A stretch of DNA of 64,000 nucleotides from a virus (IMGVR_UViG_3300037280_000040:20379-84378), one strand, 5' to 3'. Counted from the stretch's first letter, positions 1,752 to 47,434 are shown. Notes: a model not told the origin generated them from the sequence alone. Made by a program: numbers and translations.

Positions 1752-1978
1752 TTTAACTTACCTTTACAAAATTTCCAAACTATTTCAGCATTTTCTTCAG
1801 TATCAGACATATGTTCATCTAAGAAGTCTTTTCCTTCTTTAAGACCAATATTTTTATAGTAATCTTTAGGATTTCTACTAAGTTCTACCATTCCTTTTAG
1901 AACTGTTAATTTATTACCTTTTCTTATATTTTCAATAAAAAAGATAATAAATTCATCTTTACTCAATTTCTTTTCCAT
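1748..1978 (-). CDS. Hypothetical small protein
   Basis: ORF in an operon-like array. Confidence 0.3.
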   Translation of the reverse strand: MEKKLSKDEFIIFFIENIRKGNKLTVLKGMVELSRNPKDYYKNIGLKEGKDFLDEHMSDTEENAEIVWKFCKGKLK

Positions 1979-10677: not shown

Positions 10678-11657
10678 CTATTTGGACTATATCACACCTT
10701 AATTTAATAATTAAGGCTTGGGTTCTAATTCTGGTTATTAAGGGAAACCAATTTCCCTCCAGTAGTCTCTACACCTTCTATAGAATGGTCTATAGCTCGG
10801 CTCGGTATTGCATTATCACTAATGGTTTCACCGAATTCTCCCAATTCAAGACGCAGGGCATTGAATTTATCAAATTTTCTCTTTAATGGTATAAAATCTC
10901 TATCTTGGTATAACCAATCATAGAATTTTAATACATCTTTTTTATTAGAGAATTCTAATACAAAACAATCAGATTTTGTCTTAGGTTTAATAGAAGTAGA
11001 TATCCCTATTTTATATAGTATTTTTTGAGTAGCTAATAAAAGACCATAAGAAGAAGTAAAAGACACTTTTTGCCATATTCTTCCTCTATCTATTCTTTTG
11101 CCCCAAGTTATACAACCATCAGCATCAAATAAACCTTGTATCATATACTTTTCTAAACTATTTTTTAAAATAGGAAGATTTCTTTCTTTTTTAAGAGTAT
11201 TTCCTAAAAATTTAGATAATCCATTTATCTTTCTAGTAATACTAACATCAGGGAATTTTTTAGTAATTTCATTTCTAGTTAAATCTTCAAATGTATTACA
11301 TCCTAATATATTACCTAAAAAATCAATCAATTCTTTATCCCTATGTTGTAGTACTAATTGTACCATATCATTATTTATATAACTATCAGCAGCTATAAAT
11401 CCAATAAGATAAGCCCATTCTTTTGTTTCTATTTTATCTAAAATTAAAGTTGGATTTTTTTTATGAATCATTAAATTAGTTAATTCATACTTTTTAATCC
11501 AATATCTTAAAGATAAAGGTAATAACCCTAAATCTCTTTCTATTTGTCTTACACTTTTTCCCTCTAATAGGAAATTTGATAATTGTTCTTTTGTAATATT
11601 ACATACTCTATTCATTTTCTGTATATATTTAATTAAAATTTAATTAAGAACTTGTTT
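10678..11657 (-). mobile_element. Group I intron in the RNR gene, carrying a LAGLIDADG endonuclease ORF
   Basis: The R-like element is at plus 10762-10774 and the S-like element, GUGAUAUAGUCC, at plus 10684-10695. The core is homologous to the PolA intron, and the variable hairpin shows compensatory changes (ctatag/ctatag here, ctactta/taagtag there). Exon 1 ends ...cgU and the intron ends ...AAAUAG. Confidence 0.7.
10725..11615 (-). CDS. LAGLIDADG homing endonuclease, double-motif, encoded inside the intron
   Basis: The two motifs are LIGFIAADS and GLFDADGCI. Confidence 0.7.
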   Translation of the reverse strand: MNRVCNITKEQLSNFLLEGKSVRQIERDLGLLPLSLRYWIKKYELTNLMIHKKNPTLILDKIETKEWAYLIGFIAADSYINNDMVQLVLQHRDKELIDFLGNILGCNTFEDLTRNEITKKFPDVSITRKINGLSKFLGNTLKKERNLPILKNSLEKYMIQGLFDADGCITWGKRIDRGRIWQKVSFTSSYGLLLATQKILYKIGISTSIKPKTKSDCFVLEFSNKKDVLKFYDWLYQDRDFIPLKRKFDKFNALRLELGEFGETISDNAIPSRAIDHSIEGVETTGGKLVSLNNQN

Positions 11658-16097: not shown

Positions 16098-17108
16098 TCA
16101 ATCTACAGTTTTAAAGTACATAGTACTTGCATTATATTCTGTTAAGAATGGTAGAGTTCTATCTATAATAGGATTACATTTATTAGCTATAAAATTTACA
16201 AATAAATTAACCATAGTAGAAGCTATATGATTAGCCATAAAAGTAGTTTGCTTATAAGAGCAAATAGTAGGGTCAGCTTCTTCATCAGAGAATAAGTACT
16301 CATTAGTATATTTATTAATAGAATAATCATCATTACCTTGAATACATAAAATTTGATATTCCTCAGCAGCTAATCTACCATCAATAAATAAAGCATTGGC
16401 TTTTTCATTACCTTTTAATCTCTTAACATGTTTAAGCCAATTAGTAAAGTATACTTTTCTTGCTTGCATATTATCAAATCCACAAATCATAATGTTTTTA
16501 ACTGAATTATCAACAGTATATCTATCATTATAAGTGTAAATCTTATGAAATTTAGAATAAATTCTTATCATATTAGCTATAGCTCCTACTTTACTACTAT
16601 TTATATCTTGAATACTAAATAGTTGTCCAGACAAGTTACCTTCTTCTACAATATCATTATCAAATAAGACTAATTGTTGTATATTTAATCTTGATAATAA
16701 AAATGCTACATAAGAACCAATACCTCCAACACCTGCTAACATTACCTCTGCTTTCTGTATTTCTTCATACCATTCAGCTGAGCTAAATCTAGAAGTTACT
16801 ACATCTACACTTAAAGACTCTGAGTTAACTGGTATTAAATCAGGTATAGGTTCTAATATAGTTGGTACTGGTGGGGCTATTTGTATAGCTTCTCCACTTC
16901 CTAAATCATCTATATCAAAAAATTCTTCAATATCCAAGGATTCTTCAGTATGTGTACCTGTTATTGGTACTGGTACATCTTCTGCTAATTGATTTGTTTC
17001 ATGTAAATATGCTCCTATACTACTAGCATCTATTGCATCTCTACTAGTTCCAGTTGAATCTACTTCCAATGAGTCTAATAATTCATCTATTACTTCATCT
17101 TCATCCAT
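16098..17108 (-). CDS. E1-like (ThiF/MoeB/UBA superfamily) adenylyltransferase with a 115-aa acidic N-terminal extension
   Basis: The nucleotide-binding loop is VMLAGVGGIGSYVAFLLSRLNIQQLVLFDNDIVEEGNLSGQ, encoded at 16717-16736. ICGFDNMQARKVYF matches the E1 D-x-D-N...R motif. Confidence 0.65.
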   Translation of the reverse strand: MDEDEVIDELLDSLEVDSTGTSRDAIDASSIGAYLHETNQLAEDVPVPITGTHTEESLDIEEFFDIDDLGSGEAIQIAPPVPTILEPIPDLIPVNSESLSVDVVTSRFSSAEWYEEIQKAEVMLAGVGGIGSYVAFLLSRLNIQQLVLFDNDIVEEGNLSGQLFSIQDINSSKVGAIANMIRIYSKFHKIYTYNDRYTVDNSVKNIMICGFDNMQARKVYFTNWLKHVKRLKGNEKANALFIDGRLAAEEYQILCIQGNDDYSINKYTNEYLFSDEEADPTICSYKQTTFMANHIASTMVNLFVNFIANKCNPIIDRTLPFLTEYNASTMYFKTVD

Positions 17109-17121
17109 TTTTATTCATTTT

Positions 17122-18411
17122 TTAAATTACATAATTAGAAAGTTCTGTTATAATAGCATTAAGATACTCATTCATAGGAAATTCTTGCAAATAACTTATA
17201 AGAGAAAATGCAGCTATTGCAGCTGTTTTATCTTCATCAAATGAATATAAATTAACATCATCAATATTGAATAAGATAGTTTCAATAAATCCTGAAATAA
17301 AGAAATCAAATGCTTCTTTAGTAGGTAAAATAGCTGTATAAGCTTCTTCCATCCTAGGTATAAAGTTATTTAAATTTATCTTATTATTCTCAGGAACTAA
17401 CATAGACCCCATAACTATTTTTTTAGCTAATAAGTCAGTTAGTTTATCTTGCAATACTGTATCATAAAGTAAAGAGTTATCCTCTTCATCTGTAGCTGTT
17501 TCCTCTTTAGTAGGAACTGTTATTACAGAATCTTTAATCCTTTTGTCTGAAAATTCTTTAATAGGAAATGTTTTAGCAGTAGGAACTTCTCTTACAACAG
17601 GAATCTTAAAATCTCTATTAAAATCCATTTCCTGCATACCTTTAGTAAAGCTATTATTAGGATTATTACCTTGCCAACCTGCTGTACCATTGTACTTATT
17701 AGATTGATATATAGGAGCTCTATAAGCTTCTCTTTTTTTCTTAGCTATTTCATCTAATCTAGCAATAATTTCAGCATTATTATACGCAGGTACATCAATG
17801 ATTACTTTTAATTTAGACCAAATAATTTCTGACTTTTCCTCATCAATTTCAGTTTCTTCAGTATCAGAAATAACACTACCATCAAAAGTTACATATTCAT
17901 ATAACTCTGTTACTTTTGATTTAGATTTAGTTTTAAGAACAGTAGTAACAGCAGCTGTATAAGTACGTCTATTATTTACAATTAATGACACAAAATGATT
18001 ATGACACATTGCTTCTTCTCTCAAAGTATTAGTATCAGTACCACTAAAGAAAGTTTCCATATTATTATGAGAATGGATTAAACCCATACCACAATCTAAT
18101 AGGTCATTTTCTGCCATATATGTAATAATATCAGGTGATTCTGTATACTCTGTATAAGCAGCACTACCAATATCCATAACATAAATATCTTGAGCTAAGA
18201 CATTTAAATTATTTTCTGTAAATGAACCTTCAGTTGTATAAAATAATACTCCTGACCATTCATCTTTATTAATTTTTGAACAAATTAAATCTATTTTGTC
18301 CTGTACCTCTTTTTTAATTGTTAATGAAAAAGGCTTTTGGACTTCCTTGAACCCTATAACTGGTAATTTCTTCTCCTGTATAGGGATGGGTATCTGTGTG
18401 TTTTGTTCCAT
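17122..18411 (-). CDS. JAB/MPN (JAMM) metalloprotease-domain protein with a roughly 290-aa C-terminal extension
   Basis: The JAMM motif is H113-S-H115-x7-S123-x2-D126 (LIHSHNNMETFFSGTD), with HSH encoded at 18067-18075. Glu residues lie upstream in TTEGSF. Confidence 0.65.
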   Translation of the reverse strand: MEQNTQIPIPIQEKKLPVIGFKEVQKPFSLTIKKEVQDKIDLICSKINKDEWSGVLFYTTEGSFTENNLNVLAQDIYVMDIGSAAYTEYTESPDIITYMAENDLLDCGMGLIHSHNNMETFFSGTDTNTLREEAMCHNHFVSLIVNNRRTYTAAVTTVLKTKSKSKVTELYEYVTFDGSVISDTEETEIDEEKSEIIWSKLKVIIDVPAYNNAEIIARLDEIAKKKREAYRAPIYQSNKYNGTAGWQGNNPNNSFTKGMQEMDFNRDFKIPVVREVPTAKTFPIKEFSDKRIKDSVITVPTKEETATDEEDNSLLYDTVLQDKLTDLLAKKIVMGSMLVPENNKINLNNFIPRMEEAYTAILPTKEAFDFFISGFIETILFNIDDVNLYSFDEDKTAAIAAFSLISYLQEFPMNEYLNAIITELSNYVI

Positions 18412-27085: not shown

Positions 27086-27433
27086 TTACTTCTTCTCTCT
27101 ATTTTTTAAAATCTCTAAAGCAGCTTCAATACCTTTTAATAAAGCAGCATCATAATCTTTTCCATGTGGAATAAATGTAGCCATTCTATTAAAACTAGCA
27201 TAAGTCCTATTATAACTATTAATATCAAATAATTCTGCCCAATATAATCTTTCTTCTCTTGTAGTTGAATAAGTAATATCTATTCTAATATGAATATTTT
27301 GAGTATCTCTTAACCAAGCTTGTATATCTGTCATAAAATTATGACAATTACTAACAGGACATCCTAGTTTAATATATTCTTGTAGTATATCCATTTTAAA
27401 TACCTTTAGAGGAAAGAAGTTTATAAATACCAC
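27086..27433 (-). CDS. Hypothetical protein
   Basis: ORF. Confidence 0.35.
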   Translation of the reverse strand: MVFINFFPLKVFKMDILQEYIKLGCPVSNCHNFMTDIQAWLRDTQNIHIRIDITYSTTREERLYWAELFDINSYNRTYASFNRMATFIPHGKDYDAALLKGIEAALEILKNREKK

Positions 27434-27812
27434 TTACTGTCTTACCCTCAAATAGACCTTCATGATTAGCCTTAAAATAAGCCATACATACTCCTATTGA
27501 AGTAAAGCATTGTTCTGTAATAATATCACTTATTTCTTCTTTACTTAATTGAGTAGGAAGGAATAAATTTAATAACAAATTCTCATCCTCTAATTCTTTA
27601 GTTGCTACACACTTATTATTATCAGTAATAATACCTTTAATAATTCTTATAACATCAGAATCACTAGGATTTCTAGGGTCTTTAGTATTTAATTTGCTAT
27701 TTAATTCCTCATCTCTTGAAATCTCTGCAAGAACAATACCTAGAATTACTCTACTCTCTTTATGAGTATTTCTATAGGTAATAATTTTTTCTAACAATGT
27801 ACTTTCTGCCAT
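27396..27812 (-). CDS. Hypothetical protein
   Basis: ORF. Confidence 0.35.
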   Translation of the reverse strand: MAESTLLEKIITYRNTHKESRVILGIVLAEISRDEELNSKLNTKDPRNPSDSDVIRIIKGIITDNNKCVATKELEDENLLLNLFLPTQLSKEEISDIITEQCFTSIGVCMAYFKANHEGLFEGKTVSGIYKLLSSKGI

Positions 27813-28545: not shown

Positions 28546-28811
28546 AATTTTTTACTATTATGATAAATAATAAACCCTTGAGTAAACATTATACAAATAA
28601 TTAAAAACCATTTACCTATAAAGTTATATTTAGTACTAGATATTAAATCAATTTGTACATGCATACAGATAGTTATAAATCCAATAGTTGCTAATAAGAT
28701 ATAGACAAATCCTAATACTTTGTTTAATTTTTTGCCTGCCATAATGTGATTTGTTTTTAAGTTATTAAAATAATTGATTAATGTATTGATTAATGTATTG
28801 ATTATCAACAC
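28542..28811 (-). CDS. Small two-TM membrane protein, possibly a holin. The true start is probably the internal MAGKK.
   Basis: Two hydrophobic helices, VLGFVYILLATIGFITICMHV and FIGKWFLIICIMFTQGFIIY. The 5' end overlaps a 12-bp tandem repeat. Confidence 0.35.
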   Translation of the reverse strand: MLIINTLINTLINYFNNLKTNHIMAGKKLNKVLGFVYILLATIGFITICMHVQIDLISSTKYNFIGKWFLIICIMFTQGFIIYHNSKKL

Positions 28812-28813
28812 TT

Positions 28814-29224
28814 TGGTGGAGCTAGAGGGAGTCGAACCCTCGTGTTATCTTAATACTTACTAATAATCTTATATATGCTTAGTATTTACTGTACTTTTTC
28901 AGCTATTTCTAGTAATAGAGTGAAATATTGAAAACTCTAGGACTGTTTGGGACACAAACAGACACCACCATGCAATGAGATTGCAATACTTAATATTCCT
29001 CAGTAAGGAGGCAATATATCTCAAGACTTTTTAAGAAAGTTTAAACTTTTTACAACTTTATTTGATAAGGTTGTTGTCACCCCAGTTCTCTTACGCTACT
29101 AAAGCAAGCTTTGCAGCAGGAACAAAAACAATAGTTTTGCCTGTTATTCTTCTTTGAGTATTTAAAGGACTCCTCCATGCATAAATTACTACTTTTCTTG
29201 AGATAGTCTAAACCAACTAGCCCC
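28814..29224 (-). ncRNA. ssrA: tmRNA-like RNA (ssrA-like), about 411 nt
   Basis: The 5' end, GGGGCUAGUUGGUUUAGACUA, parallels E. coli GGGGCUGAUUCUGGAUUCGAC. The 3' end is GAGGGUUCGACUCCCUCUAGCUCCACCA, with a T-arm, an acceptor stem with a G3:U wobble, and an encoded CCA. A tag-like ORF reads AAUAACAGGCAAAACUAUUG...GCUUUAGUAGCGUAA, giving GKTIVFVPAAKLALVA* from a GGC resume codon or AKLLFLFLLQSLL* from GCA. Confidence 0.55.
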
Positions 29225-29246
29225 AGTTTTTTATTTAAAAATAAGA

Positions 29247-29272
29247 GTATAACATAGTTACCTATGTTATAC
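29247..29272. promoter_or_regulatory. Perfect 11-bp inverted repeat, gtataacatag-ttac-ctatgttatac, 23 nt upstream of the tmRNA 5' end
   Basis: Read directly from the sequence. On the minus strand it is followed by a U-rich run. Confidence 0.4.
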
Positions 29273-29429
29273 CCTTAATAAATTAACTAACTTCACAGTC
29301 TGCTAATTTTCAGTGTTAAATTTTCTATTTTAATAAGAAATTTAATACTTATAATACACAATACACATAAATAAAACCGTTATCAAATGTTTAATATTTT
29401 ATATTTTTACTTTAATAGAATTAAAAAGT

Positions 29430-29460
29430 AAATAGCATGACTATTAAAGCCATGCTATTT
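29430..29460 (-). terminator. Candidate intrinsic terminator, 10-bp stem aaatagcatg/catgctattt
   Basis: A hairpin followed on the minus strand by ACUUUUUAAU, downstream of gene 29771-30112. Confidence 0.4.
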
Positions 29461-29770
29461 AAAAATAATTCTATCACCTCTTAAGCCTTCAGTTATTTTT
29501 TCAAATCCTCTATGTATTTCATTCAATTAATTTAATATAATTTAGTCTTTCAGATTCATGCTATAGTGTTTCACTGATGAGAGCATTATCTCATTCAAAG
29601 AGGAGTATTTAGATTATTGTTGTCTACAAGTTTTATATACCAAACAGTATATGGGGAGACACTTACCCTGCTTGATTTAAGAATCTCACTTAAATCTCCT
29701 TAACTTCATATTATATTATATAATATGTAAGGTATGGGTCTAACCAGCCTAGATTATTACTAATCTATTT

Positions 29771-30493: not shown

Positions 30494-31075
30494 ATGTTTA
30501 GTCCACTATTTCTCAAAATAATAATCAATAGATTTGGTAATATGAGATATTTTACTTATATTTGTATTTTAAGATTTAAAATTATGAATAAAGAAACTTT
30601 AATTAATCTGATTAATCAGAATTTAAGCACTTGGCAGATTGCTGAACAATCTAATACTACTCAAGCTAATGTAAGATATTGGCTTAAAAAGTATGATTTA
30701 CAAACTATTAGAACTATTAATAAAGAGAATGAATTAAAATTATGCCCTAAATGTAATACATCTAAGTTAAAATCTGAATTTTATCAATATAAGAAAAGTA
30801 GTTCTTATTGTAAATCTTGTATTGTTGAATCTAATTTAGAAAGACAAAGAGATACTAAATCTTTAGCTGTTGAATATAAAGGAGGAAAATGTTCTATATG
30901 TGGTTACAATAAATCTATTGCAGCTTTAGAATTTCATCATTTAAATCCAACAGAAAAAGATAAAGATTACTTTAATATGAGAGCAGGATTAACTCCTACT
31001 CTAAAAATAGAATTGGATAAATGTGTACTTCTTTGTGCAAATTGTCATAGAGAAACACATCATTTAATTCAATAA
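30494..31075 (+). CDS. Free-standing HNH endonuclease with an N-terminal HTH. It is the only plus-strand gene in the minus-strand block.
   Basis: The HNH motif is EFHHLNP...CANCHRETHH, with a Cys ribbon CPKCN...CKSC. The HTH-like region is STWQIAEQSNTTQANVRYWLKKY. Confidence 0.6.
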   Translation: MFSPLFLKIIINRFGNMRYFTYICILRFKIMNKETLINLINQNLSTWQIAEQSNTTQANVRYWLKKYDLQTIRTINKENELKLCPKCNTSKLKSEFYQYKKSSSYCKSCIVESNLERQRDTKSLAVEYKGGKCSICGYNKSIAALEFHHLNPTEKDKDYFNMRAGLTPTLKIELDKCVLLCANCHRETHHLIQ

Positions 31076-32743
31076 TTACCTCTTATTAGTTAGGTAACAT
31101 GCATCATTATTTACAATCACAATACCTGCATTAGTACAATGAATAATTGAGTTAGCTGAAGCTACAGAACAATCAAATTCAAGTATTGGATTCATATCTA
31201 ATAATCTAGCAAATTGTATTTTATTATCATAAGGTATTACTGCTAAATCATTATTAAGCACATCAAAGTATTTTAATTCGGTCTCAGAAGCTAAATAAGT
31301 AAGTTTTAGATTTGAGATACTAGCATATTGATAAGTTACCTTCTCATTAGCTATTTCTTCAAGTAAAACTAAGTTTCCTCTTTGAATTATATTCTTAATT
31401 GCTATATCAGCCATTACATAGTTTAAACTATTCTTTTCACAATACATCAATACAGTTTTACCTGATACACTCTGATAAATACTATCTATCTGAGTAAATC
31501 CTCTACCATATACAGAAGTTATAGTATAAGATAATCCTAATAAACTTTTACTTAAATCAAAATTATACAGTTTATCTTCTGTTACTAATACAAGATTAGA
31601 ACCATATAAATCAGCTTTGATTTTAATAGTACTAGGAACACTAGCTATATGTTCTAATTTAGGATAGAGTTGAAGTAAGTTACCATTACTATTGAGACAA
31701 TAAATAGCTTTTTCATATACAAAAAACTTAGGATTTTTAGCAGTTATTTTGTCACTTTTTACAAGAGTAGCAGTACCTTTAAGTGAGGTATCATATATAA
31801 AATACTCACCTCTAACTGTATACAATAATAACAAATCCTTACTAGCAGTTGATTGAATAATCTGAGTACCTACTCCTCCAAACATTGTTCTTACAGTCAT
31901 ATTAGCTGATTGTATATTTACAGGTTGTTTAATTACAGTATTAATAATCATAGTATTAAGACTTATAATAAATCTTTCTCCATTATTAAATACTCTATTA
32001 AATTGATTGAGTAACATATTATCAGAAATAGGCTCATAGCACTTAGGAATTATAATATCAGGAGAATTAGACAATATTGATTCCTTCTTAATCATTCTAT
32101 CTGCTATCTTAGGTATCTTTTTATGCATACCTTTGAATGGGTGTACATAAGTAAGCATATTAAATACCAAAATAGACAAGGCAAAATAATCAGAATTAAT
32201 AGATACATCTCCATTAAATAAAAAGTCCCTAACATCTTCTAATAACACACCTGAATGTTTAAATCCAGGGGTCTGAAAGGAATCAGTATCTATAAAATAC
32301 ACAATTCCATCTCTATTAATTAAGATATTATAAGGATTTAAATCTCCTATAACTACCTGATTGCTATGAGCATATTTAACACCTTGTATTAAAGCTTCAA
32401 TTACTTTTTTCTTTGTATCTAAAGTAATTGATTCTCTATTACAAAACACTTTATTTAATAATGAAACTAAAGGAAAGAAATCACTAGGAATTTTCCTCAT
32501 TGAGAATCCAAGAACATGTTTATTAGCATCATAAAGTAATGATTCAGGCTTGATAAACATGGGATTATCTAATTTGTGTAATTCTAGAAATTTACTTTCA
32601 GCAATAGGTTTAACATTGGGAAGATACAATTTAACCACATGGTTAGCATCCAAATCAAGGACTCTTCCTTCTCCACCTCTTGCAATCTCTTTAGATTCAT
32701 TAATATCATAAAGTAGTTGACCATTCTTATCAAATACTTTCAT
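31076..32743 (-). CDS. Eukaryotic-like Ser/Thr protein kinase with a C-terminal domain of about 280 aa and unknown fold
   Basis: The Gly-rich loop is IARGGEGRV, followed by the VVKL lysine. The catalytic loop is HSNQVVIGDLNPYNILI and the DFG-like motif is FIDTDSF. Confidence 0.6.
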   Translation of the reverse strand: MKVFDKNGQLLYDINESKEIARGGEGRVLDLDANHVVKLYLPNVKPIAESKFLELHKLDNPMFIKPESLLYDANKHVLGFSMRKIPSDFFPLVSLLNKVFCNRESITLDTKKKVIEALIQGVKYAHSNQVVIGDLNPYNILINRDGIVYFIDTDSFQTPGFKHSGVLLEDVRDFLFNGDVSINSDYFALSILVFNMLTYVHPFKGMHKKIPKIADRMIKKESILSNSPDIIIPKCYEPISDNMLLNQFNRVFNNGERFIISLNTMIINTVIKQPVNIQSANMTVRTMFGGVGTQIIQSTASKDLLLLYTVRGEYFIYDTSLKGTATLVKSDKITAKNPKFFVYEKAIYCLNSNGNLLQLYPKLEHIASVPSTIKIKADLYGSNLVLVTEDKLYNFDLSKSLLGLSYTITSVYGRGFTQIDSIYQSVSGKTVLMYCEKNSLNYVMADIAIKNIIQRGNLVLLEEIANEKVTYQYASISNLKLTYLASETELKYFDVLNNDLAVIPYDNKIQFARLLDMNPILEFDCSVASANSIIHCTNAGIVIVNNDACYLTNKR

Positions 32744-33461
32744 CAGTTGGCTCTTTTATGAATCTAACAATACTAATATCATCAAAATTAATATAACCTT
32801 TTTTTCTAAAAATGTTATACTTTCTTGATAACATAGCATCTGACCCTATTAAACTTCTATCATTTAAGAATGTATCAATTGCTAATGCTGTAGCATCTTC
32901 TTTAAGTGCATTTCTAAATGAACAGATACCATCACTACAGATACTTACATCTTTTTTAAATGTAAATGAATGTAGATTAGTATGTTTAGCCATTACTAGT
33001 GTAGGATTCTTATCTAAGTAGTAAGCCATATAATCAGGAGCATTATCTTTAGATTCAAGAATTATTAATTCATCATCCACTTTTATTACTCCATCACCTG
33101 AGCTAAGAATTAAAACTTCATCACCTCTAATAATACAAATTATCATAGTTGATACTAATTCTAATTCTTTTAAATCTAATAAATGTTGTACTTCTTTAAA
33201 TCCATCAAATATATCATGAAATAGTATATTCATAATAAAATGAAGATTTAAATCAGCTACATTCTTAAAATTATTACAGGAATGTTTTAATACTTTAACT
33301 AATAGAGAAGAAGCAAAATGAGAATCCATACCGGTGGAGCAACCATCAAAGATTGCTCCAATGTATAAAGGTTCTTTTGCATCTTGAACTCTAAAGAATA
33401 AGGAATCCTCACAATAAGTGAGATGGTCATCTCCTTTTTTAACAAGAGTTCTAACTTCCAT
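32730..33461 (-). CDS. PP2C-family Ser/Thr phosphatase
   Basis: GAIFDGCSTG matches the (V)FDGHGG metal-binding motif. ILSSGDGV matches the GDSR-like motif. Confidence 0.55.
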   Translation of the reverse strand: MEVRTLVKKGDDHLTYCEDSLFFRVQDAKEPLYIGAIFDGCSTGMDSHFASSLLVKVLKHSCNNFKNVADLNLHFIMNILFHDIFDGFKEVQHLLDLKELELVSTMIICIIRGDEVLILSSGDGVIKVDDELIILESKDNAPDYMAYYLDKNPTLVMAKHTNLHSFTFKKDVSICSDGICSFRNALKEDATALAIDTFLNDRSLIGSDAMLSRKYNIFRKKGYINFDDISIVRFIKEPTDESI

Positions 33462-34144
33462 TAGAAAGTTACATCTAAAGGATTAGCACCACTACTTGAT
33501 TTAGAGATAGAAGAAGAAATGAAATTAATCATTTTTCTTATCTCAGCACCAGTATTACCTACTTTAGCCAAATGTTGAATACCCATTAACTTTTGAGCTC
33601 TCTCAAAAGAAGAATCATCTCCTACTCCAAATAAGATTGAAGTAAAAGAAAAGGCACTTGCTTCATTTTTAGCAATATCATCAAGAGTAGTTTTAACAGC
33701 ATCAGCTGCACCTCTCTGTGATGAATTATCTTCACCATCAGTAATTACAAATACTAATGTTTTAACATTAATACCAGTATTTTCAAGGTTCTCTCTGTAC
33801 TCAATAGCATTTTTAATACCTTGAGCCACTGCATCATATAAAGCTGTACCATGACCTGATGGAGTAAATTGAATAGTTGGTACTCCAATAATAGGTTGGA
33901 ATCCACTTCTTACTTTAACTTTATCATGGAATTCTACAATAGAAACAAATAATCTATCATGAATATGACTTTGTTGCATAGTTTGAATAAAATCATTGAA
34001 GGCATTATTCAAGTCACTAGAATATGGGTATATTGATGGAGAAATATCCACAATGAATACAGCATTAATAGTTTCTTCTACTTGAATTTGCTCTGGGTCA
34101 AAATTATTAAAATCCAGAGATAAGTCTAAATCATTAAAATCCAT
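33461..34144 (-). CDS. von Willebrand factor A (vWA) domain protein with a MIDAS motif
   Basis: The MIDAS is FIVDISPSI (DxSxS), then TALYDAV, then VFVITDGEDN. Confidence 0.6.
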   Translation of the reverse strand: MDFNDLDLSLDFNNFDPEQIQVEETINAVFIVDISPSIYPYSSDLNNAFNDFIQTMQQSHIHDRLFVSIVEFHDKVKVRSGFQPIIGVPTIQFTPSGHGTALYDAVAQGIKNAIEYRENLENTGINVKTLVFVITDGEDNSSQRGAADAVKTTLDDIAKNEASAFSFTSILFGVGDDSSFERAQKLMGIQHLAKVGNTGAEIRKMINFISSSISKSSSGANPLDVTF

Positions 34145-34149
34145 GATAG

Positions 34150-34938
34150 TTACAGTTTAATATTGGTTGATATTTCAAATTTAATTCCCATAGCTTGAGC
34201 ATCTGCATAAATACTATCAGCCATATGTTCAAATCCTGTTACAGGACTCATACAGTCAGTTAAGATTATAAATTTCTTAGCTAACTCAGGAAATTGCATG
34301 GCTTGTTTAAGAGTATTAGCCACACAATGAGATTGTGCTTCTCCTGCAAAGTAAATAACATCAAATGTTTCCAGCTTTTGTAACAAAGCTTGATTCAATT
34401 GAGTCTCAGGATGTCCTGCTACTGGAATATTTGCTCTGAATGCACCAAAGTGTTCAGTTAAGGGATAAGTTCCTTTTGCTACTACTTGATAGAAAGATTT
34501 TGTTTCTCTAGCCCAAGCTGTAACAGCATCCATAATAGGCTCAACAAAAGAAGCTCCTTTAGTTCCAATAACACAATGCTCAGCCCAAATACAATGAGGG
34601 AATTCTCCTTGTTTCTCAAGTTCCTCAATATACTTAGTAGCTTCATTAGGCACAAATCTTGGACTCCATTTACCATCTAACACATCTTGATATGTTATGA
34701 TTGTAAAAATAGGTGGGAAATTACCATCTTTATCTGTCCAAAATCCTGGGTGAGCAATATCTAATACTTGGTGACTGTCCATAGTCATACCAATGTAATT
34801 AATGCTGTTTTTATTTTTAGTAATAAATTCAGCTAGTCTCAACATGTCTTTATCTGCATTATCTACAAATAATGATCCTTTTGGGTCACAAAAGTCAAAT
34901 TGAGCATCTATAATTAAAAGAGCTATTTTTTTATACAT
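34150..34938 (-). CDS. Isochorismatase-family cysteine hydrolase, nicotinamidase (PncA)-like
   Basis: IALLIIDAQFDFCDPKGSLFV matches PncA ALLLVDLQNDFC..G.L.V. A candidate catalytic Cys lies in FAGEAQSHCV. Confidence 0.55.
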   Translation of the reverse strand: MYKKIALLIIDAQFDFCDPKGSLFVDNADKDMLRLAEFITKNKNSINYIGMTMDSHQVLDIAHPGFWTDKDGNFPPIFTIITYQDVLDGKWSPRFVPNEATKYIEELEKQGEFPHCIWAEHCVIGTKGASFVEPIMDAVTAWARETKSFYQVVAKGTYPLTEHFGAFRANIPVAGHPETQLNQALLQKLETFDVIYFAGEAQSHCVANTLKQAMQFPELAKKFIILTDCMSPVTGFEHMADSIYADAQAMGIKFEISTNIKL

Positions 34939-34962
34939 TGTGTAAATATTTAATAAGTGAAT

Positions 34963-35295
34963 TTAAATCTTTTTAGTGAGAAATGTAATAATTTTACCTG
35001 CTTTATATACAATATTCTTATCATCAGTATAATACTGAATTATTAGATTTATAATAAAAGCTAATGACATAATAATATTAATAAAAGGAATAAAGAATGT
35101 TATTCCCATTACTATATATACAATTAATGGATATTTTACTCTTTCAGTAGCTACTGAATCTTCAATTAATTCTAATTTATTAGAGTAAAATCCAGTATTT
35201 TTTCTAAAACAATCTTCAGTATATCTATAAGATTGTTTTAGCATATTGTATAATAGAATATACAATATTAAAGCTATGATATATCCTATCCACAT
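34963..35295 (-). CDS. Small membrane protein
   Basis: Two hydrophobic segments. Confidence 0.35.
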   Translation of the reverse strand: MWIGYIIALILYILLYNMLKQSYRYTEDCFRKNTGFYSNKLELIEDSVATERVKYPLIVYIVMGITFFIPFINIIMSLAFIINLIIQYYTDDKNIVYKAGKIITFLTKKI

Positions 35296-35299
35296 AGTA

Positions 35300-36154
35300 C
35301 TACTTAATTAATAGTCCACCATTAACTCCATAAGTAGTAGGATATTTACCATCCCATACTTTTAATCTTTGTAATTCTACAAGAGCAGGAGTTAAAGATT
35401 TTGATACTTTCTGATTATAATATTCTTCTGCATCTGCTTCAATTTTTCTTGCATCTGCACGTCCTTTTGCTTCAGCTATAGCTATATTGGCATGAGCTGT
35501 TGCAAGAGCAACTTTATTCTCTTCCTTTTGAGCATCTTGAGTCATTGCAACTTTAGCATCTAAAGCATCTTTTATAGATTTAGGTATTCTTACTGAACCA
35601 ATTAGATATATATTATCAATTAATATACCATCATTCTTAAGATTAGCTGTTACAACCTTTTTAACTGAATCAATTAATAATCCTTTACCAGCACCATACA
35701 CTGATTCAACAGGCATATTACCACTAATTCTATTCAATGCATCTCTTACTGTATTCCTTAATACTATACTTCTTATTTCTTCAACTTGTTTATGATAGGT
35801 AGTATACATATGAGGTAATTTATCAAAATCAAAATGCATAGCTATTCCTAAATCAACTGCACATTCCATTCCTTCTTTTGTTTGAAATGTAAATTCTTCA
35901 TTGTCTTTAGAACCTTCAGTTGAACTGGCAGTAAATGTATAATTAACCTTAAAGGTAGGGAAATCATAGTAGTTTTGACCCCATGATTCAAAATAATTAC
36001 CTGGTCCAACTGCTTTAGGTTGTACTCCTTTATTATCACCATACTTTTCAAGAATAACTGAAGCTGAGCCTATCTCAGTTCTGTGCATACAACTTGTGAG
36101 AGTCATAGTCAAAGCTACCATAAGTAGCATAGAAAAAATCTTTAATCCTTTCAT
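35300..36154 (-). CDS. Lipoprotein with an SPFH/Band-7 (HflK/C-like) domain
   Basis: Signal plus lipobox MLLMVALTMTLTSCM. The C-terminus has an Ala/Glu-rich coiled coil, ALATAHANIAIAEAKGRADARKIEADAEE, typical of SPFH proteins. Confidence 0.5.
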   Translation of the reverse strand: MKGLKIFSMLLMVALTMTLTSCMHRTEIGSASVILEKYGDNKGVQPKAVGPGNYFESWGQNYYDFPTFKVNYTFTASSTEGSKDNEEFTFQTKEGMECAVDLGIAMHFDFDKLPHMYTTYHKQVEEIRSIVLRNTVRDALNRISGNMPVESVYGAGKGLLIDSVKKVVTANLKNDGILIDNIYLIGSVRIPKSIKDALDAKVAMTQDAQKEENKVALATAHANIAIAEAKGRADARKIEADAEEYYNQKVSKSLTPALVELQRLKVWDGKYPTTYGVNGGLLIK

Positions 36155-38585: not shown

Positions 38586-38625
38586 AATGTTCTTAAGTAC
38601 TAAGATTAATAATTTATTTAATTGT

Positions 38626-38698
38626 GATTCAGAAGGGATTCAAACCCTTGACCCCTACCTTAGAAGGGTAGTGCTCTATTCAGCTGAGCTACTGAACC
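38626..38698 (-). tRNA. tRNA-Arg (anticodon UCU)
   Basis: Manual fold: acceptor GGUUCAG/CUGAAUC, D stem GCUC/GAGC, anticodon stem CUACC/GGUAG with loop CUUCUAA, T arm AAGGG-UUUGAAU-CCCUU. Confidence 0.7.
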
Positions 38699-44123: not shown

Positions 44124-44194
44124 AGTTTCCTAGTGTAATGGTAGCACAAGAGTCTTTGGTCCTCTTAGTTAAAGTTCAAATCTTTAGGAGACTA
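44124..44194 (+). tRNA. tRNA-Gln (anticodon UUG)
   Basis: Manual fold: acceptor AGUUUCC/GGAGACU, D stem GUG/CAC, anticodon loop CUUUGGU, T arm UAAAG-UUCAAAU-CUUUA. Confidence 0.55.
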
Positions 44195-44203
44195 CAATAA
44201 TAT

Positions 44204-44275
44204 GCCTTTATAGTGTAATGAATAGCACACGATTCTTCTAAGATTATAGTATAGGTTTGAATCCTATTAGGGGTA
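44204..44275 (+). tRNA. tRNA-like, probably tRNA-Arg (UCU), with a weak anticodon stem
   Basis: Acceptor GCCUUUA/UAGGGGU is wobble-rich. The T arm is AUAGG-UUUGAAU-CCUAU. The anticodon loop is CUUCUAA, but only 4 of 5 stem pairs form. Confidence 0.4.
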
Positions 44276-44290
44276 CAATAATTAATAAAT

Positions 44291-44557
44291 ATGATACAAA
44301 GAGTTCCTGTATTGAGAGAATGTTCTTATAAAGAATATAATGATAACATAGATAAACATCCTGATGAATATCTTAGATTATTTGTAGTTGATAGTAATAC
44401 TGAAAGTACTGAGGATATTACAAAAGAGGTTGATGATAATATTGATGCAATAGGTAATACTGATAAGAATAAGTTTTACAAAGTATTAGGATTAGTTAGT
44501 TCTCAAGAGTTAGAAAAAGATATACAACAAACACAACAAAGTAGTTTGTTGAATTAA
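44291..44557 (+). CDS. Hypothetical acidic protein
   Basis: ORF. Confidence 0.35.
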   Translation: MIQRVPVLRECSYKEYNDNIDKHPDEYLRLFVVDSNTESTEDITKEVDDNIDAIGNTDKNKFYKVLGLVSSQELEKDIQQTQQSSLLN

Positions 44558-44718
44558 ATCATAAATGTTTTTAATAAAGTTGATTTAGCTATACTTAGTC
44601 TGTGAAGATAGAGATAGCACAAAAATATAGATATAGTTCAGTTGCTAGAATGCTTGGTTTGGGACCAAGAGGTCAAGAGTTGGAGTCTCTTTATCTATAC
44701 AATTTATTTTAGAATTAA

Positions 44719-44932
44719 AATGGAAGAAGAAAAGAAAACATTAGAACCTTATCAACTAAGAGTTATTGATGAGTTTAAAGATATTGATTTTAAAGTAAGA
44801 AAGATAGAGAAATTTATATTAACTGATGTATATAAAAATTTATCTAAATCAGAACAAAGTATGATAGACTTACAGGTTATGTATATGACTGGTTATTATA
44901 AAGTTTTAATGGAAAGAATAAATAGATTTTAA
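44719..44932 (+). CDS. Hypothetical small protein. The start was moved to the internal MEEEKKT.
   Basis: ORF. The upstream part of the listed ORF is unlikely to be coding. Confidence 0.35.
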
Positions 44933-44935
44933 TAA

Positions 44936-45009
44936 GGGGTCTTAGCTCAATTGGCTAGAGCGATTGCTTTGCAAGCAATAGGTAGTGGGTTCAATCCCCA
45001 CAGATTCCA
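44936..45009 (+). tRNA. tRNA-Ala (anticodon UGC)
   Basis: Acceptor GGGGUCU/AGAUUCC with G3:U70. D stem GCUC/GAGC. Anticodon stem AUUGC/GCAAU with loop UUUGCAA. T arm GUGGG-UUCAAUC-CCCAC. Confidence 0.75.
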
Positions 45010-45014
45010 CATAT

Positions 45015-45088
45015 GTTCTAATAGCTCAATTGGTTAGAGCTTTTGACTGTTAATCAAAGGGTTGTAGGTTCAAGTCCTACTTAGAACG
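45015..45088 (+). tRNA. tRNA-Asn (anticodon GUU)
   Basis: Acceptor GUUCUAA/UUAGAAC. Anticodon stem UUUGA/UCAAA with loop CUGUUAA. T arm GUAGG-UUCAAGU-CCUAC. Confidence 0.75.
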
Positions 45089-45111
45089 CAGTATTAATTT
45101 AATTAAAAACA

Positions 45112-45414
45112 ATGGCACAAATTGAAGTAATGTTAGAGATTATAGATGATGTAATTCCTTTATATCCTGATTTAGTATCAAAAGATTATAAAGAAACTAT
45201 CATATATGATTATAAAAATTTATTAGATACTAAAGAATCTCTATATAAATATAGAGAAATAGTAAGAGAATTAGAAGTAGCTTTAAAAGAAAGAGAATAT
45301 AAATTTAATAAACAATCTCAATTTTTTAATATTGTTTATAAGACTGAAATTAAACAAGGAGTTGATAAACCTGAATATGCTGATACTATGCATGTAAAGG
45401 GAAAAGTATATTAA
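45112..45414 (+). CDS. Hypothetical protein
   Basis: ORF. Confidence 0.4.
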   Translation: MAQIEVMLEIIDDVIPLYPDLVSKDYKETIIYDYKNLLDTKESLYKYREIVRELEVALKEREYKFNKQSQFFNIVYKTEIKQGVDKPEYADTMHVKGKVY

Positions 45415-45415
45415 T

Positions 45416-45643
45416 ATGACTTGGGAAGAAGCTTACTTAGAGATGGAGAAAGGTAATATTATTACCACTCCTAATAGTCCTAATTATTGTTTACTATATG
45501 CTCCTAATCATATATTAGTATTTTGTGAACCTGATAGATTATATCATATTAGTAGTAATAAAAGAATTAAAGAAGTTACTGATTATATAGTTGATAATAC
45601 TAAGAGAGATATTATTAATAATTTAGTAATAAAACTAAAATAG
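45416..45643 (+). CDS. Hypothetical small protein
   Basis: ORF 2 nt after the previous stop. Confidence 0.35.
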   Translation: MTWEEAYLEMEKGNIITTPNSPNYCLLYAPNHILVFCEPDRLYHISSNKRIKEVTDYIVDNTKRDIINNLVIKLK

Positions 45644-45677
45644 TTTATTTTTATCTTCCTACTCAATTTTAAAGCGT

Positions 45678-45938
45678 ATGAATAGATACTTTATAGTTAA
45701 TCCAAATCTTTATATATCTAAAGATAAATACATAGTAAGACTAACTGAATACAATATTGATACTCATATCTTTAAAGGAACTAAGATTAGTTGGATTACA
45801 AATGATGAGGATGGTAAAATAGAAGATATTAGAATAGAAGATATTGAATTGGATGATAATAAATTATCAATATTTAAAGAAATAAATAAAAGAATTTTTT
45901 ATAAGATATTATTAGTACTATTAAAGAATTCTTATTAA
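45678..45938 (+). CDS. Hypothetical small protein
   Basis: ORF. Confidence 0.35.
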   Translation: MNRYFIVNPNLYISKDKYIVRLTEYNIDTHIFKGTKISWITNDEDGKIEDIRIEDIELDDNKLSIFKEINKRIFYKILLVLLKNSY

Positions 45939-45956
45939 CCTTAAAAACTTAATAAA

Positions 45957-46397
45957 ATGGACAATTTTGATTTAGATTTAAGTCTAAGACCTAAGGGTGG
46001 TAGTGGTAATACTAGTGGTACTAGTACTTTTAAAGATTTTATATGTAAACTTGAAAGTTATAAAACTAAATTTAAGAATTTACATTGGGGAGCTATGAAT
46101 GATACTTTACATTTAAGAGTAGACCAATTCTTAGATGAGTTAACTGACTTCCAAGATGAATTATCTGAGACAGGGCAAGGTATTATAGGATTCCAATTTG
46201 GACCTAATGATATAGTTACTACTCACTTAAATTATACTGACCCAATAGTAGCTTTAACTACTCTTAAAGATAAAACATTAGCATTTCATAAAAGTATTAA
46301 TTCTAATCCTGAATTAATTGGTTTAGTAAATTCTGTAGAAGGATTTATGACTATAGTAGGAAAATTCTTATATTTATTTAGAATAGCTGCTAAGTAA
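45957..46397 (+). CDS. Hypothetical protein (146 aa)
   Basis: ORF. Confidence 0.4.
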   Translation: MDNFDLDLSLRPKGGSGNTSGTSTFKDFICKLESYKTKFKNLHWGAMNDTLHLRVDQFLDELTDFQDELSETGQGIIGFQFGPNDIVTTHLNYTDPIVALTTLKDKTLAFHKSINSNPELIGLVNSVEGFMTIVGKFLYLFRIAAK

Positions 46398-46406
46398 TTA
46401 GTCTAA

Positions 46407-46479
46407 GGACCAGTAGCTCAGTTGGTAGAGCACCTGACTCATAATCAGTAAGTCCCAAGTTCAATCCTTGGATGGTCCA
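46407..46479 (+). tRNA. tRNA with a CAU anticodon, Met or Ile2-lysidine type
   Basis: Acceptor GGACCAG/AUGGUCC with a G7·A66 mismatch. D stem GCUC/GAGC. Anticodon loop CUCAUAA. T arm CCAAG-UUCAAUC-CUUGG. Confidence 0.55.
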
Positions 46480-46480
46480 C

Positions 46481-46553
46481 TGTGTGGAAAGCTCTTATGG
46501 TGAGAGTGCCAAATTGTGGATTTGGAGGGAGGGTTCGAGTCCCTACTACACCC
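46481..46553 (+). tRNA. tRNA-like, probably tRNA-His (GUG). The acceptor/D-stem junction is irregular.
   Basis: Clean anticodon arm CCAAA-UUGUGGA-UUUGG. T loop UUCGAGU. Discriminator C, as in tRNA-His. Three A residues separate the acceptor and D stems. Confidence 0.4.
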
Positions 46554-46558
46554 TTAAT

Positions 46559-46631
46559 GGAAATATGGCAGACATGATGTATGCACTAGTTTGAAGCACT
46601 AGCTAAGGGAGTTTGAGTCTCTCTGTTTCCA
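46559..46631 (+). tRNA. tRNA-Phe (anticodon GAA)
   Basis: Acceptor GGAAAUA/UGUUUCC. Anticodon stem CUAGU/ACUAG with loop UUGAAGC. T arm GGGAG-UUUGAGU-CUCUC. Confidence 0.55.
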
Positions 46632-46692
46632 CAATATTAGTTAATACTTAAAACTTTAACAATAATAATTAGGTCATGTAGTTTATTTTACT

Positions 46693-46700
46693 TACCTTTG
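46693..46700 (+). promoter_or_regulatory. Promoter -7 box TAccTTTG inside TTTTACTTACCTTTGT, upstream of gene 46724
   Basis: Motif family match. Confidence 0.45.
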
Positions 46701-46723
46701 TATCAACAAATAAAAAATAAAGT

Positions 46724-47092
46724 ATGAGTGTAGTTTTATTAAATAGTTTGAATGCTGATAGAGATTTTATTTTAAATCTTAATGGTATTTTTAATAATGG
46801 AAAAATTATAGATAAAAAATTATTTTTTCATTCTGAAATTTATATATATTCTAATTCTACAGTAGAAGGAGTAGTAATGTATGTACCTACTAATGAGGTT
46901 TTTCTTAGAATTAAAGTAACTTATCCTACCCAAAATATTGCTAATAAGAGTGCATGGATTATGACTAGTAACTTAGAAGAAGAATTATTAAGACAAATAT
47001 TATTTGCTAAAGAAACTAATAATACTATAACTGATACTAAAGGTAATATTATTAAAACATTTGCTGATTATAAAAAAGAAATAATGCCTTGA
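46724..47092 (+). CDS. Hypothetical protein
   Basis: ORF behind the promoter motif. Confidence 0.4.
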   Translation: MSVVLLNSLNADRDFILNLNGIFNNGKIIDKKLFFHSEIYIYSNSTVEGVVMYVPTNEVFLRIKVTYPTQNIANKSAWIMTSNLEEELLRQILFAKETNNTITDTKGNIIKTFADYKKEIMP

Positions 47093-47171
47093 TGGTGGAA
47101 TTGGTAGACACGCAGGACTTAAAATCCTGTGAGCAGTAATGCTCGTATGGGTTCAAGTCCCATTCAAGGTA
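47086..47171 (+). tRNA. tRNA-Leu (anticodon UAA), type II with a long variable arm
   Basis: Acceptor GCCUUGA/UCAAGGU. Anticodon stem CAGGA/UCCUG with loop CUUAAAA. Variable-arm hairpin GAGC-AGUAAU-GCUC. T arm AUGGG-UUCAAGU-CCCAU. Confidence 0.75.
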
Positions 47172-47254
47172 CAATTATTTAGTTTCTAACAAAGTGGATG
47201 GAAGTTAGAATTAAGTGGAGACATGTAATATTCCAACTAAATAATTTTTAAAAT

Positions 47255-47326
47255 GCCAAATAAACTTTGATGATGAAGCCCACTCTTGTAAAGTGGTTTA
47301 ACTAGGTTTGAGTCCTAGATTTGGCT
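47255..47326 (+). tRNA. tRNA-Thr (anticodon UGU) with an atypical D arm
   Basis: Perfect acceptor GCCAAAU/AUUUGGC. Anticodon stem CCACU/AGUGG with loop CUUGUAA. T arm CUAGG-UUUGAGU-CCUAG. The D stem pairs poorly. Confidence 0.5.
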
Positions 47327-47337
47327 CAAAAAAAAAT

Positions 47338-47411
47338 AGCGGGTTAGAGCAGTCAGGTAGCTCAACAGACTCATAATCTGTAGGTCACTGGTTCAAATCC
47401 AGTACCCGCCA
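47338..47411 (+). tRNA. Second CAU-anticodon tRNA, with an A1·C72 mismatch
   Basis: Acceptor AGCGGGU/ACCCGCC. D stem GAGC/GCUC. Anticodon stem ACAGA/UCUGU with loop CUCAUAA. T arm ACUGG-UUCAAAU-CCAGU. Confidence 0.6.
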
Positions 47412-47434
47412 CTAAATACTTTAAATATATAAAT

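Follow-up and report, generated by a model that had tools for sequence, protein, structure and literature searches.

A complete one-piece tmRNA gene kept by selection in a lineage of crAss-like phages

Does a crAss-like phage carry a transfer-messenger RNA (tmRNA) gene of its own, and would its product rescue stalled ribosomes? These phages are among the commonest viruses of the animal gut, and their takeover of host translation is poorly understood. We analysed a 64,000-nt stretch of viral DNA (IMGVR_UViG_3300037280_000040:20379-84378, hereafter the window), in which a reading made from the sequence alone (the sequence-only reading) had proposed a complete tmRNA-like gene on the minus strand at 28814-29224. 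We find that the gene is genuine and is kept by selection in one lineage of crAss-like phages, that it appears to be of Bacteroidota origin, and that the tag it encodes has drifted far from the host degron. The locus probably specifies a working, phage-encoded one-piece tmRNA.

Detection and fold of the gene

ARAGORN calls a tmRNA at exactly these ends, with the tag GKTIVFVPAAKLALVA* starting at RNA position 84. In a local search run in E-value mode, the Rfam tmRNA model RF00023 aligns end to end with the locus (model positions 1-374, 46.2 bits, E = 5e-17). The two are independent detectors and agree on the coordinates of the tmRNA. A default Rfam scan of the window lists only 11 tRNAs and misses the tmRNA, because its score lies under the RF00023 gathering score of 47 bits, which is a curated cut-off and not a biological feature; in practice, the default threshold passes over this gene by 0.8 bits. 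The pieces stand in standard order and the permuted-tmRNA model RF04321 reaches only 21 bits (gathering score 47), which rules out a permuted two-piece gene with the 3' acceptor/T-arm piece upstream of the 5' piece.

Relatives at graded distances were located through the flanking helicase, and their homologues fetched. Within the assembly collection, >60 blocks contain the species of the window phage, with no more than one base of variation in the tmRNA. The relatives examined whose helicases are 63-76% identical all carry a tmRNA in the same region, upstream of the helicase: L044 (helicase 76%, tag GKTIVFVPASTLRVAV, Rfam score 78.3 bits), L047 (65%, GETKVILFTAAIAEVDEAPCFSMKAAA, 54.2 bits), L170 (65%, GETKVILFTPAVALRAVA, 96.2 bits), L045 (63%, GNKVIIFAPAVAVKAAA, 59.1 bits) and L171 (63%, 38.9 bits), where only the 3' end is present, cut at the contig edge. 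The more distant L173 (50%) has, in the corresponding region, a tmRNA of 329 nt with the tag GNTFCRIAA (57.7 bits).

The RNA starts with GGGGCUAGUUGGUUUAGACUA and ends with GGUUCGACUCCCUCUAGCUCCACCA, as the sequence-only reading had read off the minus strand, and the tRNA-Ala-like acceptor stem with its G3:U70 pair, the T-arm and the encoded CCA that it described are all found in the sequence (Table 1). The acceptor stem has 7 bp and is followed by the discriminator and CCA. G3:U70 is invariant in five aligned phage tmRNAs and the discriminator A is present in 6/6; the CCA is encoded in the window phage only, among six phage tmRNAs. Pairs 5 and 7 of the acceptor stem show compensatory changes among the phage homologues, in which GGGGCUA/UAGCUCC becomes GGGGGUG/CACCUCC or GGGGGAU/AUCCUCC. 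The T-arm, with a loop of the GGUUCGAnUCC type, has all its cells (100%) paired, and four of its five pairs are altered on both sides in relatives (GAGGG/CCCUC to AACAG/CUGUU, UGGGG/CCCCA or AAGGG/CCCUU).

Covariation was assessed in five phage tmRNAs; L173 was left out (its MFFT alignment was poor in the 5' half). The explicit structure tested comprised helix H1, helices H2a-c, the T-arm, pseudoknot 1 (PK1), hairpin H5 and stem S1 of pseudoknot 2 (PK2). It has 89.6% of cells paired, compared with 41-47% when partners are slid by 1-3 columns, and 22 pairs altered on both sides, compared with 3-6 in the slid controls; the observed covariation values were matched by 0/500 shuffles. RNAalifold on the same five-sequence alignment predicts 78 pairs, 29 of them with compensatory change. 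Among the elements, H2 forms 20 bp over three segments, with 12/20 pairs altered on both sides, H5 has 3/7 such pairs, and S2 of PK2 covaries among relatives as ACAAC/GUUGU, GUAAC/GUUAC and GCAAC/GUUGC. In the hairpin at RNA 240-254, all five pairs differ between the window (UGCAA/UUGCA) and L044 (CCUGG/CCAGG). The tmRNA fold is under selection in this phage lineage.

Of the pseudoknots PK1 to PK4, to which the sequence-only reading had pointed as a check on the fold, PK2 is present with its covarying S2, and PK1 can be drawn. The PK1 block UGGAGGAGUCC...AAUACUCA is invariant in five phage tmRNAs, and a longer probe, CAUGGAGGAGUCCU(N0-3)AAUACUCA, is common to four of the five; the Rfam alignment places the window block on PK1, and L173 lacks it. 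We draw the putative PK1 pairing as 3+3 bp, and it is only inferred because invariance yields no covariation. From PK2 to PK4 the Rfam alignment has low posterior probability and is unusable for annotating those elements.

Could the locus instead be a tRNA-Ala-like gene with an intervening sequence, or two tRNA-like halves that are neighbours by chance? Besides the slightly sub-threshold Rfam score of the window copy, such a false positive would fit the exact 3' 26-mer, which has 18 loci in IMG/VR, all of them ordinary tRNA-Ala genes of unrelated phages. However, the RNA has no anticodon arm, the Rfam tmRNA model is covered over its full length, the homologues score well over the threshold, there is covariation in H2, H5 and PK2, and the tag frame is kept; neither ARAGORN nor Rfam calls a tRNA at the locus. 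This explanation, to which we give practically no probability, is already refuted by the evidence in hand. The claim of a complete tmRNA-like gene on the phage is borne out by the agreement of ARAGORN and RF00023, the homologues in related phages and the covariation of the fold.

Table 1. Positions in the window of the tmRNA gene, its parts and the hairpins that flank it
Feature	Coordinates	Strand	Details	Basis
One-piece tmRNA (ssrA) gene, complete	28814..29224	-	411 nt with encoded CCA	ARAGORN; RF00023 46.2 bits; phage homologues 54-96 bits
Acceptor stem, 5' strand	29218..29224	-	GGGGCUA (RNA 1-7); G3 of the alanine identity pair G3:U70	Sequence; homologue alignment
H2, 5' strand	29179..29204	-	Three segments (RNA 21-27, 34-41, 42-46)	RNAalifold
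PK1, minimal pseudoknot (putative pairing)	29156..29176	-	GGA/UCC (RNA 49-51/56-58) interleaved with GAG/CUC (53-55/67-69)	
Resume context and tag open reading frame (ORF)	29091..29146	-	U-5 A-4 A-3 (29144-29146); resume codon GGC (29139-29141); 16-codon ORF GKTIVFVPAAKLALVA; UAA stop (29091-29093)	
H5	29094..29118	-	Hairpin covering the 3' portion of the tag ORF, ends directly before the stop codon	RNAalifold
PK2	29052..29084	-	S1 UGGGGU/ACCUUA (RNA 141-146/154-159); S2 ACAAC/GUUGU (148-152/169-173)	
Helix-rich region at the place of PK3/PK4	28889..29017	-	Hairpins RNA 208-232, 240-254, 264-282, 286-309, 323-336	
H2, 3' strand	28847..28878	-	RNA 347-351, 357-364, 372-378, with the conserved ACUAAGCAU region	RNAalifold, covariation
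T-arm	28825..28841	-	GAGGG-UUCGACU-CCCUC (RNA 384-400)	Sequence, covariation
Acceptor stem, 3' strand, discriminator and CCA	28814..28824	-	UAGCUCC (RNA 401-407), A408, encoded CCA (409-411)	
Terminator-like hairpin	29242..29277	-	16 pairs, 4-nt loop, then T-run UUUUUAAAUA; ends 17 nt upstream of the tmRNA 5' end	
Second terminator-like hairpin	29429..29461	-	In a 545-nt non-coding stretch upstream of the tmRNA	
Weak hairpin	28783..28811	-	Immediately 3' of the tmRNA, before the gene for the 66-aa protein	

Tag peptide, origin and proposed action

Cellular genomes were scanned with a pattern made of the 5' element GGGG-N5-UGGUUUWGAC and the T-arm, which gave at least 120 loci. Among the matches listed, to which all cellular figures in this report refer, the loci belong by record title almost entirely to Bacteroidales, Flavobacteriaceae and Paludibacter, and the 115 tmRNAs extracted carry 9-residue GENNYALAA-type tags and have a mean GC content (GC) of 47% (minimum 37%).

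The resume context U-5 A-4 A-3 followed by GGN is kept in 6/6 phage tmRNAs; cellular Bacteroidota match U-5, A-4 and A-3 in 111/114, 114/114 and 96/114 cases, respectively. The "non-canonical tag reading frame" of the sequence-only reading is thus a misnomer: the resume codon and its context are placed as in cellular Bacteroidota, and only the peptide is unusual. The internal string AAUAACAGGCAAAAC that it quoted is found in the sequence, and both of its peptides are real translations, but the alternative frame, AKLLFLFLLQSLL, runs for only 3-4 codons in L045, L047 and L170, and only the GGC frame is conserved. This resume frame is the sole frame that is open with related peptides in all six phage tmRNAs, where it spans 16, 16, 17, 18, 27 and 9 codons, so that every length change is in frame.

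The window tag has 16 residues, is uncharged except for two lysines and ends in A-L-V-A; its grand average of hydropathy (GRAVY) is 1.51. It is indeed unlike the 9-residue Bacteroidota tag GENNYALAA: the canonical Y-A-L-A-A-type degron features are absent, and only the non-polar character of the last three residues is shared. Tags of 16-27 residues are found in 5/6 phages, compared with 9 residues in 106/115 cellular tmRNAs, and phage GRAVY values are 0.48-1.51, compared with a cellular mean of -0.24 and maximum of 0.36. A hydrophobic core, (I/V)-(V/I)-(F/I/L)-x-(P/A/T), is kept across the phage tags by way of different codons. At position -4, K or R occurs in 5/6 phage tags and A in 112/115 cellular ones. 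Cellular tags end in LAA or FAA in 113/115 cases; the phage C-termini (LVA, VAV, AAA, AAA, AVA, IAA) are non-polar like LAA.

These features allow a refinement, in which the long hydrophobic tag alters the fate of rescued proteins. It might do so through another protease such as Lon or FtsH, by bypassing a host adaptor or by changing the speed of degradation. Tag length, hydropathy, the core kept with different codons and the basic residue at -4 all speak for such reprogramming, as do the long non-canonical tags on most Bacteroidota-type tmRNAs of IMG/VR viral contigs (see below). Gur and Sauer are said to have found in 2008 that Mycoplasma ssrA tags lengthened along with a switch from ClpXP to Lon, which would count on the same side. 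Against this, the C-termini still resemble LAA, so that ClpXP- or Tsp-type recognition may be unchanged, and the C-terminal half of the tag is variable between close relatives, which fits relaxed constraint equally well. We regard tag reprogramming as doubtful, if conceivable. Somewhat less likely still is the idea that in this lineage the tmRNA has evolved to re-label stalled-ribosome products, by a strongly hydrophobic tag with the core (I/V)(V/I)(F/L)x(P/A)A and usually K or R at -4, and changes their host protease or quality-control route, rather than just adding rescue capacity. Were re-labelling real, the long odd tags on other IMG/VR phage tmRNAs would amount to a general, undescribed viral strategy.

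By its sequence features, the RNA most likely works with the host alanyl-tRNA synthetase and SmpB in ribosome rescue. It would be transcribed with the minus-strand early/replication genes and processed like a tRNA, by RNase P at the 5' end and by trimming at the 3' end, with the CCA encoded here. The conserved G3:U70 pair and discriminator A should permit charging by host alanyl-tRNA synthetase. Host SmpB and EF-Tu would then carry the tmRNA to ribosomes stalled on broken or stop-less mRNAs, and the ribosome would move to the GGC resume codon, positioned by U-5 A-4 A-3 and PK1. The peptide (A)GKTIVFVPAAKLALVA would be appended, with termination at UAA. Ribosomes would be freed during infection, and the rescued peptides would bear a phage-specific hydrophobic tag ending in small aliphatic residues.

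The RNA might alternatively act mainly as a decoy or inhibitor, sequestering host SmpB, alanyl-tRNA synthetase or EF-Tu and shutting down host trans-translation. Its tRNA-like domain (TLD) is the best conserved part and no phage SmpB is seen in the window, both as expected for a decoy, and a phage tmRNA that comprises the TLD only has been described, with evidence cited for tmRNA inhibition by such molecules (PMC4131195). Yet the TLD alone would suffice for this role, whereas five closer genomes conserve the resume context, tag ORF, H5, PK1 and PK2, and in all six the resume context is kept and the frame is open. We therefore consider a decoy improbable.

How did the phages come by the gene? 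Their tmRNAs are 44-55% identical to the sampled cellular tmRNAs and, for the five close phages, 61-84% identical to each other; they group together in a neighbour-joining tree, a grouping that shared AT-richness may help. The longer PK1 probe has 0 matches in 185,579 species genomes and 0 in IMG/VR. In IMG/VR, the exact 5' 19-mer and a tag-start 21-mer likewise have 0 matches; the close helicase relatives there are two short contigs of the same phage, which end before the tmRNA. GenBank phages gave no match by blastn with the tmRNA or megablast with 20 kb of the window, and a scan of metagenome contigs with the PK1 block returned the same phage only. The tmRNA does not have the same low GC as the phage, as the sequence-only reading had held: it has 34.8% and the phage ~27% throughout the window, although the gene still lies far below the cellular mean and under the minimum. 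Together these features suggest an old capture from a Bacteroidota-type ssrA by the crAss-like lineage, inherited since. They point to Bacteroidota only; a Bacteroides host is an assumption.

Temperate phages often integrate into ssrA and carry its 3' end. A recently captured host remnant, or an attP-type fragment without function of its own, would account for the Bacteroidota-type 5' element and T-arm. We think this highly improbable, given that the gene is full length and not a 3' fragment, that the window has no integrase, that the PK1 block is missing from all 185,579 species genomes, that GC and identity set the gene apart from the sampled cellular tmRNAs, and that it has undergone compensatory evolution inside the phage lineage. 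The narrower case of an attP fragment was rejected on the full length of the gene, the lack of an integrase in the window and the failure to find a near-identical cellular sequence. That the gene is no recent host fragment, as had been proposed, agrees with the PK1 search, the homologues and the covariation.

Several observations weigh against a working tmRNA and temper our confidence. The Rfam score of the window copy falls 0.8 bits short of the gathering score. PK1 has only 3+3 bp and is invariant, and no confident assignment of classical PK3/PK4 could be made in the helix-rich region. The single-sequence minimum free energy fold is not unusually stable (z = -1.12) and does not recover H2; single-sequence folding is uninformative here because the RNA is AT-rich and pseudoknotted. 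A terminator-like hairpin stands directly upstream of the gene (Table 1), and neither a sigma-70-like nor a Bacteroides-type (TAnnTTTG) promoter was found close to it. About 36 kb of the ~100-kb genome lie beyond the window, so that a phage SmpB is possible there. Finally, no tmRNA was found within 8-10 kb on each side of the helicase in the nearest relatives from GenBank, cr128_1, cr111_1 and cr108_1 (helicase ~45%), or in L175 (52%). None was found on the short contig L172 (55%) either. The tmRNA-less relatives indicate that the gene is characteristic of a sub-lineage and that crAss-like phages in general can do without it.

A tmRNA in this lineage makes it possible to ask in concrete terms whether crAss-like phage growth is limited by ribosome rescue, because the tag sequence can be searched for in metaproteomes. 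The type of tmRNA is also a clue to the host phylum of uncultured phages, and the phage tags form a natural set of variants for studying degron recognition in Bacteroidota.

Genomic context

The window belongs to a crAss-like, Steigviridae-like phage: its ORF at 62393-63883 matches Pfam Crass_capsid (E = 1.8e-198), and the nearest GenBank capsids are those of Steigviridae cr111_1 (70.5% identity), then of cr108_1 and the crAss001 group. The tmRNA lies within a 960-bp non-coding gap of a minus-strand replication module. On its 3' side (lower coordinates) follow genes for a 66-aa membrane protein, an 81-aa protein, a glucosaminidase, a YqeY-like protein and the SNF2-type helicase; on its 5' side (higher coordinates) are a 113-aa ORF, an opposite-strand HNH endonuclease and a kinase/PP2C/VWA/Band-7 block. 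Because the tmRNA is on the same strand as its neighbours, co-transcription with tRNA-like processing would be the simplest reading. No integrase was found in the 64-kb window, nor was SmpB, by Pfam scans and by a search with two seed sequences, the latter being weak evidence.

The perfect 11-bp inverted repeat that the sequence-only reading placed upstream of the gene exists, but it lies 22 nt, not 23, from G1 and extends to 16 pairs; it is the first terminator-like hairpin of Table 1 and does not obviously belong to the tmRNA. At the same relative position, L045 carries a strong hairpin with another sequence, whereas L044, L047 and L170 have none; these three share another motif, GUGAGCC..AUAAACAAAGCCUUU. 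Directly 3' of the tmRNA (28760-28811, minus strand), ~2.5 direct copies of UAAUCAAUACAU overlap the weak hairpin, and L045 has a similar 3'-flank hairpin, GUAUUGAUUAUCAAUAC. An 89-aa ORF listed here, with a GTG start, is probably spurious; gene callers use the ATG of the 66-aa membrane protein.

Some strains of the same species (L025, L026 and L035-L038) have a different segment upstream of the tmRNA, at window ~29225-29770 (e.g. L025:67-2271). This segment, which stands in place of the window's 113-aa ORF, comprises a DUF8224 gene of 705 aa, an ORF of 126 aa and a tRNA-like gene to which ARAGORN assigns the 4-base anticodon atga; many assemblies break there. The HNH homing endonuclease gene (30494-31075, plus strand; phrog_2255, E = 2e-34) is ~1.3 kb upstream of the tmRNA, and its opposite orientation suggests a mobile insertion near the variable region. 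Further upstream, at 31076-36154 (minus strand), are genes for a Ser/Thr kinase, a PP2C phosphatase, a VWA protein and an SPFH/Band-7 protein, a block also found in L044 and in parts in L045.

The YqeY/GatB-like gene at 27396-27812 (minus strand; Pfam YqeY, E = 5.6e-05; phrog_1460 'tRNA amidotransferase') encodes a translation-associated domain 1 kb 3' of the tmRNA, and its position is kept in L044, L045 and L047. The eleven tRNA genes of the window (38624-38698 and 44124-47412) are Arg(TCT) x2, Gln, Pro, Ala, Asn, Met x2, His, Phe and Leu(TAA); ten of them cluster at a transcription strand switch, and the acceptor stem of the phage tRNA-Ala differs from that of the tmRNA. On L173, a 95.5-kb contig, the tmRNA (1323-1653) is directly upstream of a TROVE/Ro60-family gene (1680-3095), among tRNA genes, and L173:1323-3095 resembles a small gene cluster devoted to non-coding RNA and to quality control of RNA.

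Elsewhere in the window, a ThiF-like gene (16098-17108) adjoins a JAB-domain gene (17122-18411), and several ORFs at ~8014-11615 (minus strand) match the ribonucleotide reductase large subunit. The ORF at 8014-9153 covers profile positions 367-523 only, two further mid-sized ORFs match as well, and one of the mid-sized ORFs carries a LAGLIDADG domain; an intron or intein with a homing endonuclease may interrupt the gene. In cr128_1 (MT774392.1), a group I intron (RF00028, 86.1 bits; L021:3938-4207) lies in an unannotated gap and overlaps the start of an annotated hypothetical gene.

Comparison with known tmRNAs

The phage gene shares with cellular Bacteroidota ssrA the 5' element GGGG-N5-UGGUUUWGAC, the T-arm GGGUUCRAYUCCCUC, G3:U70, the discriminator A, U-5 A-4 A-3, the GGC resume codon and the tag start G-(E/N/K)-(T/N/K), as well as the order of TLD, H2, PK1, tag with H5, PK2 and further helices. 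It differs in its viral location, in a PK1 of ~3+3 bp and in a tag of 16 hydrophobic residues ending in LVA, where cellular tags have 9 polar residues ending in Y-A-L-A-A. More compact forms of H2 and PK1 bring the resume codon nearer to the 5' end, to 81-84 in the phages as compared with 93-99 in the cellular tmRNAs.

That phages carry tmRNAs, in some cases with long odd tags, is established. Genes for ssrA have been reported in eight mycobacteriophages (Bxz1, Catera, Wildcat and others) and Bacillus phage G, and a form made up of the TLD only in DS6A (PMC4131195, PMC1475703), and tmRNA occurs together with SmpB in huge phages (PMC7162821). In common with these the window phage has a complete gene, a lytic lifestyle and many tRNA genes, with presumed support or manipulation of translation (PMC4131195, PMC1475703, PMC7162821). 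Their genomes span 150-735 kb and their hosts are Actinobacteria, Firmicutes or others, some huge phages encoding SmpB, whereas the window phage, a crAss-like podovirus, has a genome of ~100 kb and a Bacteroidota-type tmRNA, and the 64 kb of the window contain no SmpB. The DS6A tmRNA is likewise phage-borne and has an intact TLD, but it holds little beyond the TLD and was proposed to inhibit trans-translation (PMC4131195); the window gene keeps the whole mRNA-like domain.

We found no paper discussing tmRNA in crAss-like phages; RefSeq already annotates two, in cr7_1 (NC_055895.1, L177:5950-6306) and cr124_1 (NC_055899.1, L178:5950-6306), both Suoliviridae of the genus Burzaovirus. These are permuted two-piece tmRNAs (tmRNA_permuted RF04321, 66.4 bits, gathering score 47; ARAGORN tmRNA*), for which ARAGORN gives the tags DNVNNIVDYTNVA and GNVNNIVDYTNVA. 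Permuted tmRNAs are classically those of alpha- and beta-proteobacteria and cyanobacteria, and one in a phage of gut Bacteroidales is therefore unexpected. They resemble the window tmRNA in being from Crassvirales, in the Bacteroidota-like UUUGGUUUUGAC element and in a non-canonical tag (theirs [D/G]NVNNIVDYTNVA), and differ from it in family and genomic context; only ~40 nt of the TLD are similar, and the window gene is one-piece.

Two scans of IMG/VR yielded 55 viral contigs (L179-L233) with the Bacteroidota-type one-piece signature, and ARAGORN tmRNAs were obtained from ~50. None has the PK1 block of the window clade, and global identities, whose baseline is near 0.6, do not tell the candidates apart. 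Five carry the cellular GENNYALAA-type tag and most have long, divergent tags of 12-32 residues, so that long odd tags are common among phage tmRNAs. The tag DVELSTMTFEDAMAFVGADYAVAA and near variants of it occur on ~20 contigs of 17-237 kb, and L222 (a 94-kb contig, locus GC 26%) has the tag GKTIKLSETTFNDIMRQVSNVELEMAA with the same resume context as the window. Like the window gene, the IMG/VR viral tmRNAs are one-piece, with lowered GC and long non-canonical tags that end in small aliphatic residues; their tags are mostly acidic or amphipathic (GRAVY <=0.88), whereas the window tag, at 1.51, is the most hydrophobic seen.

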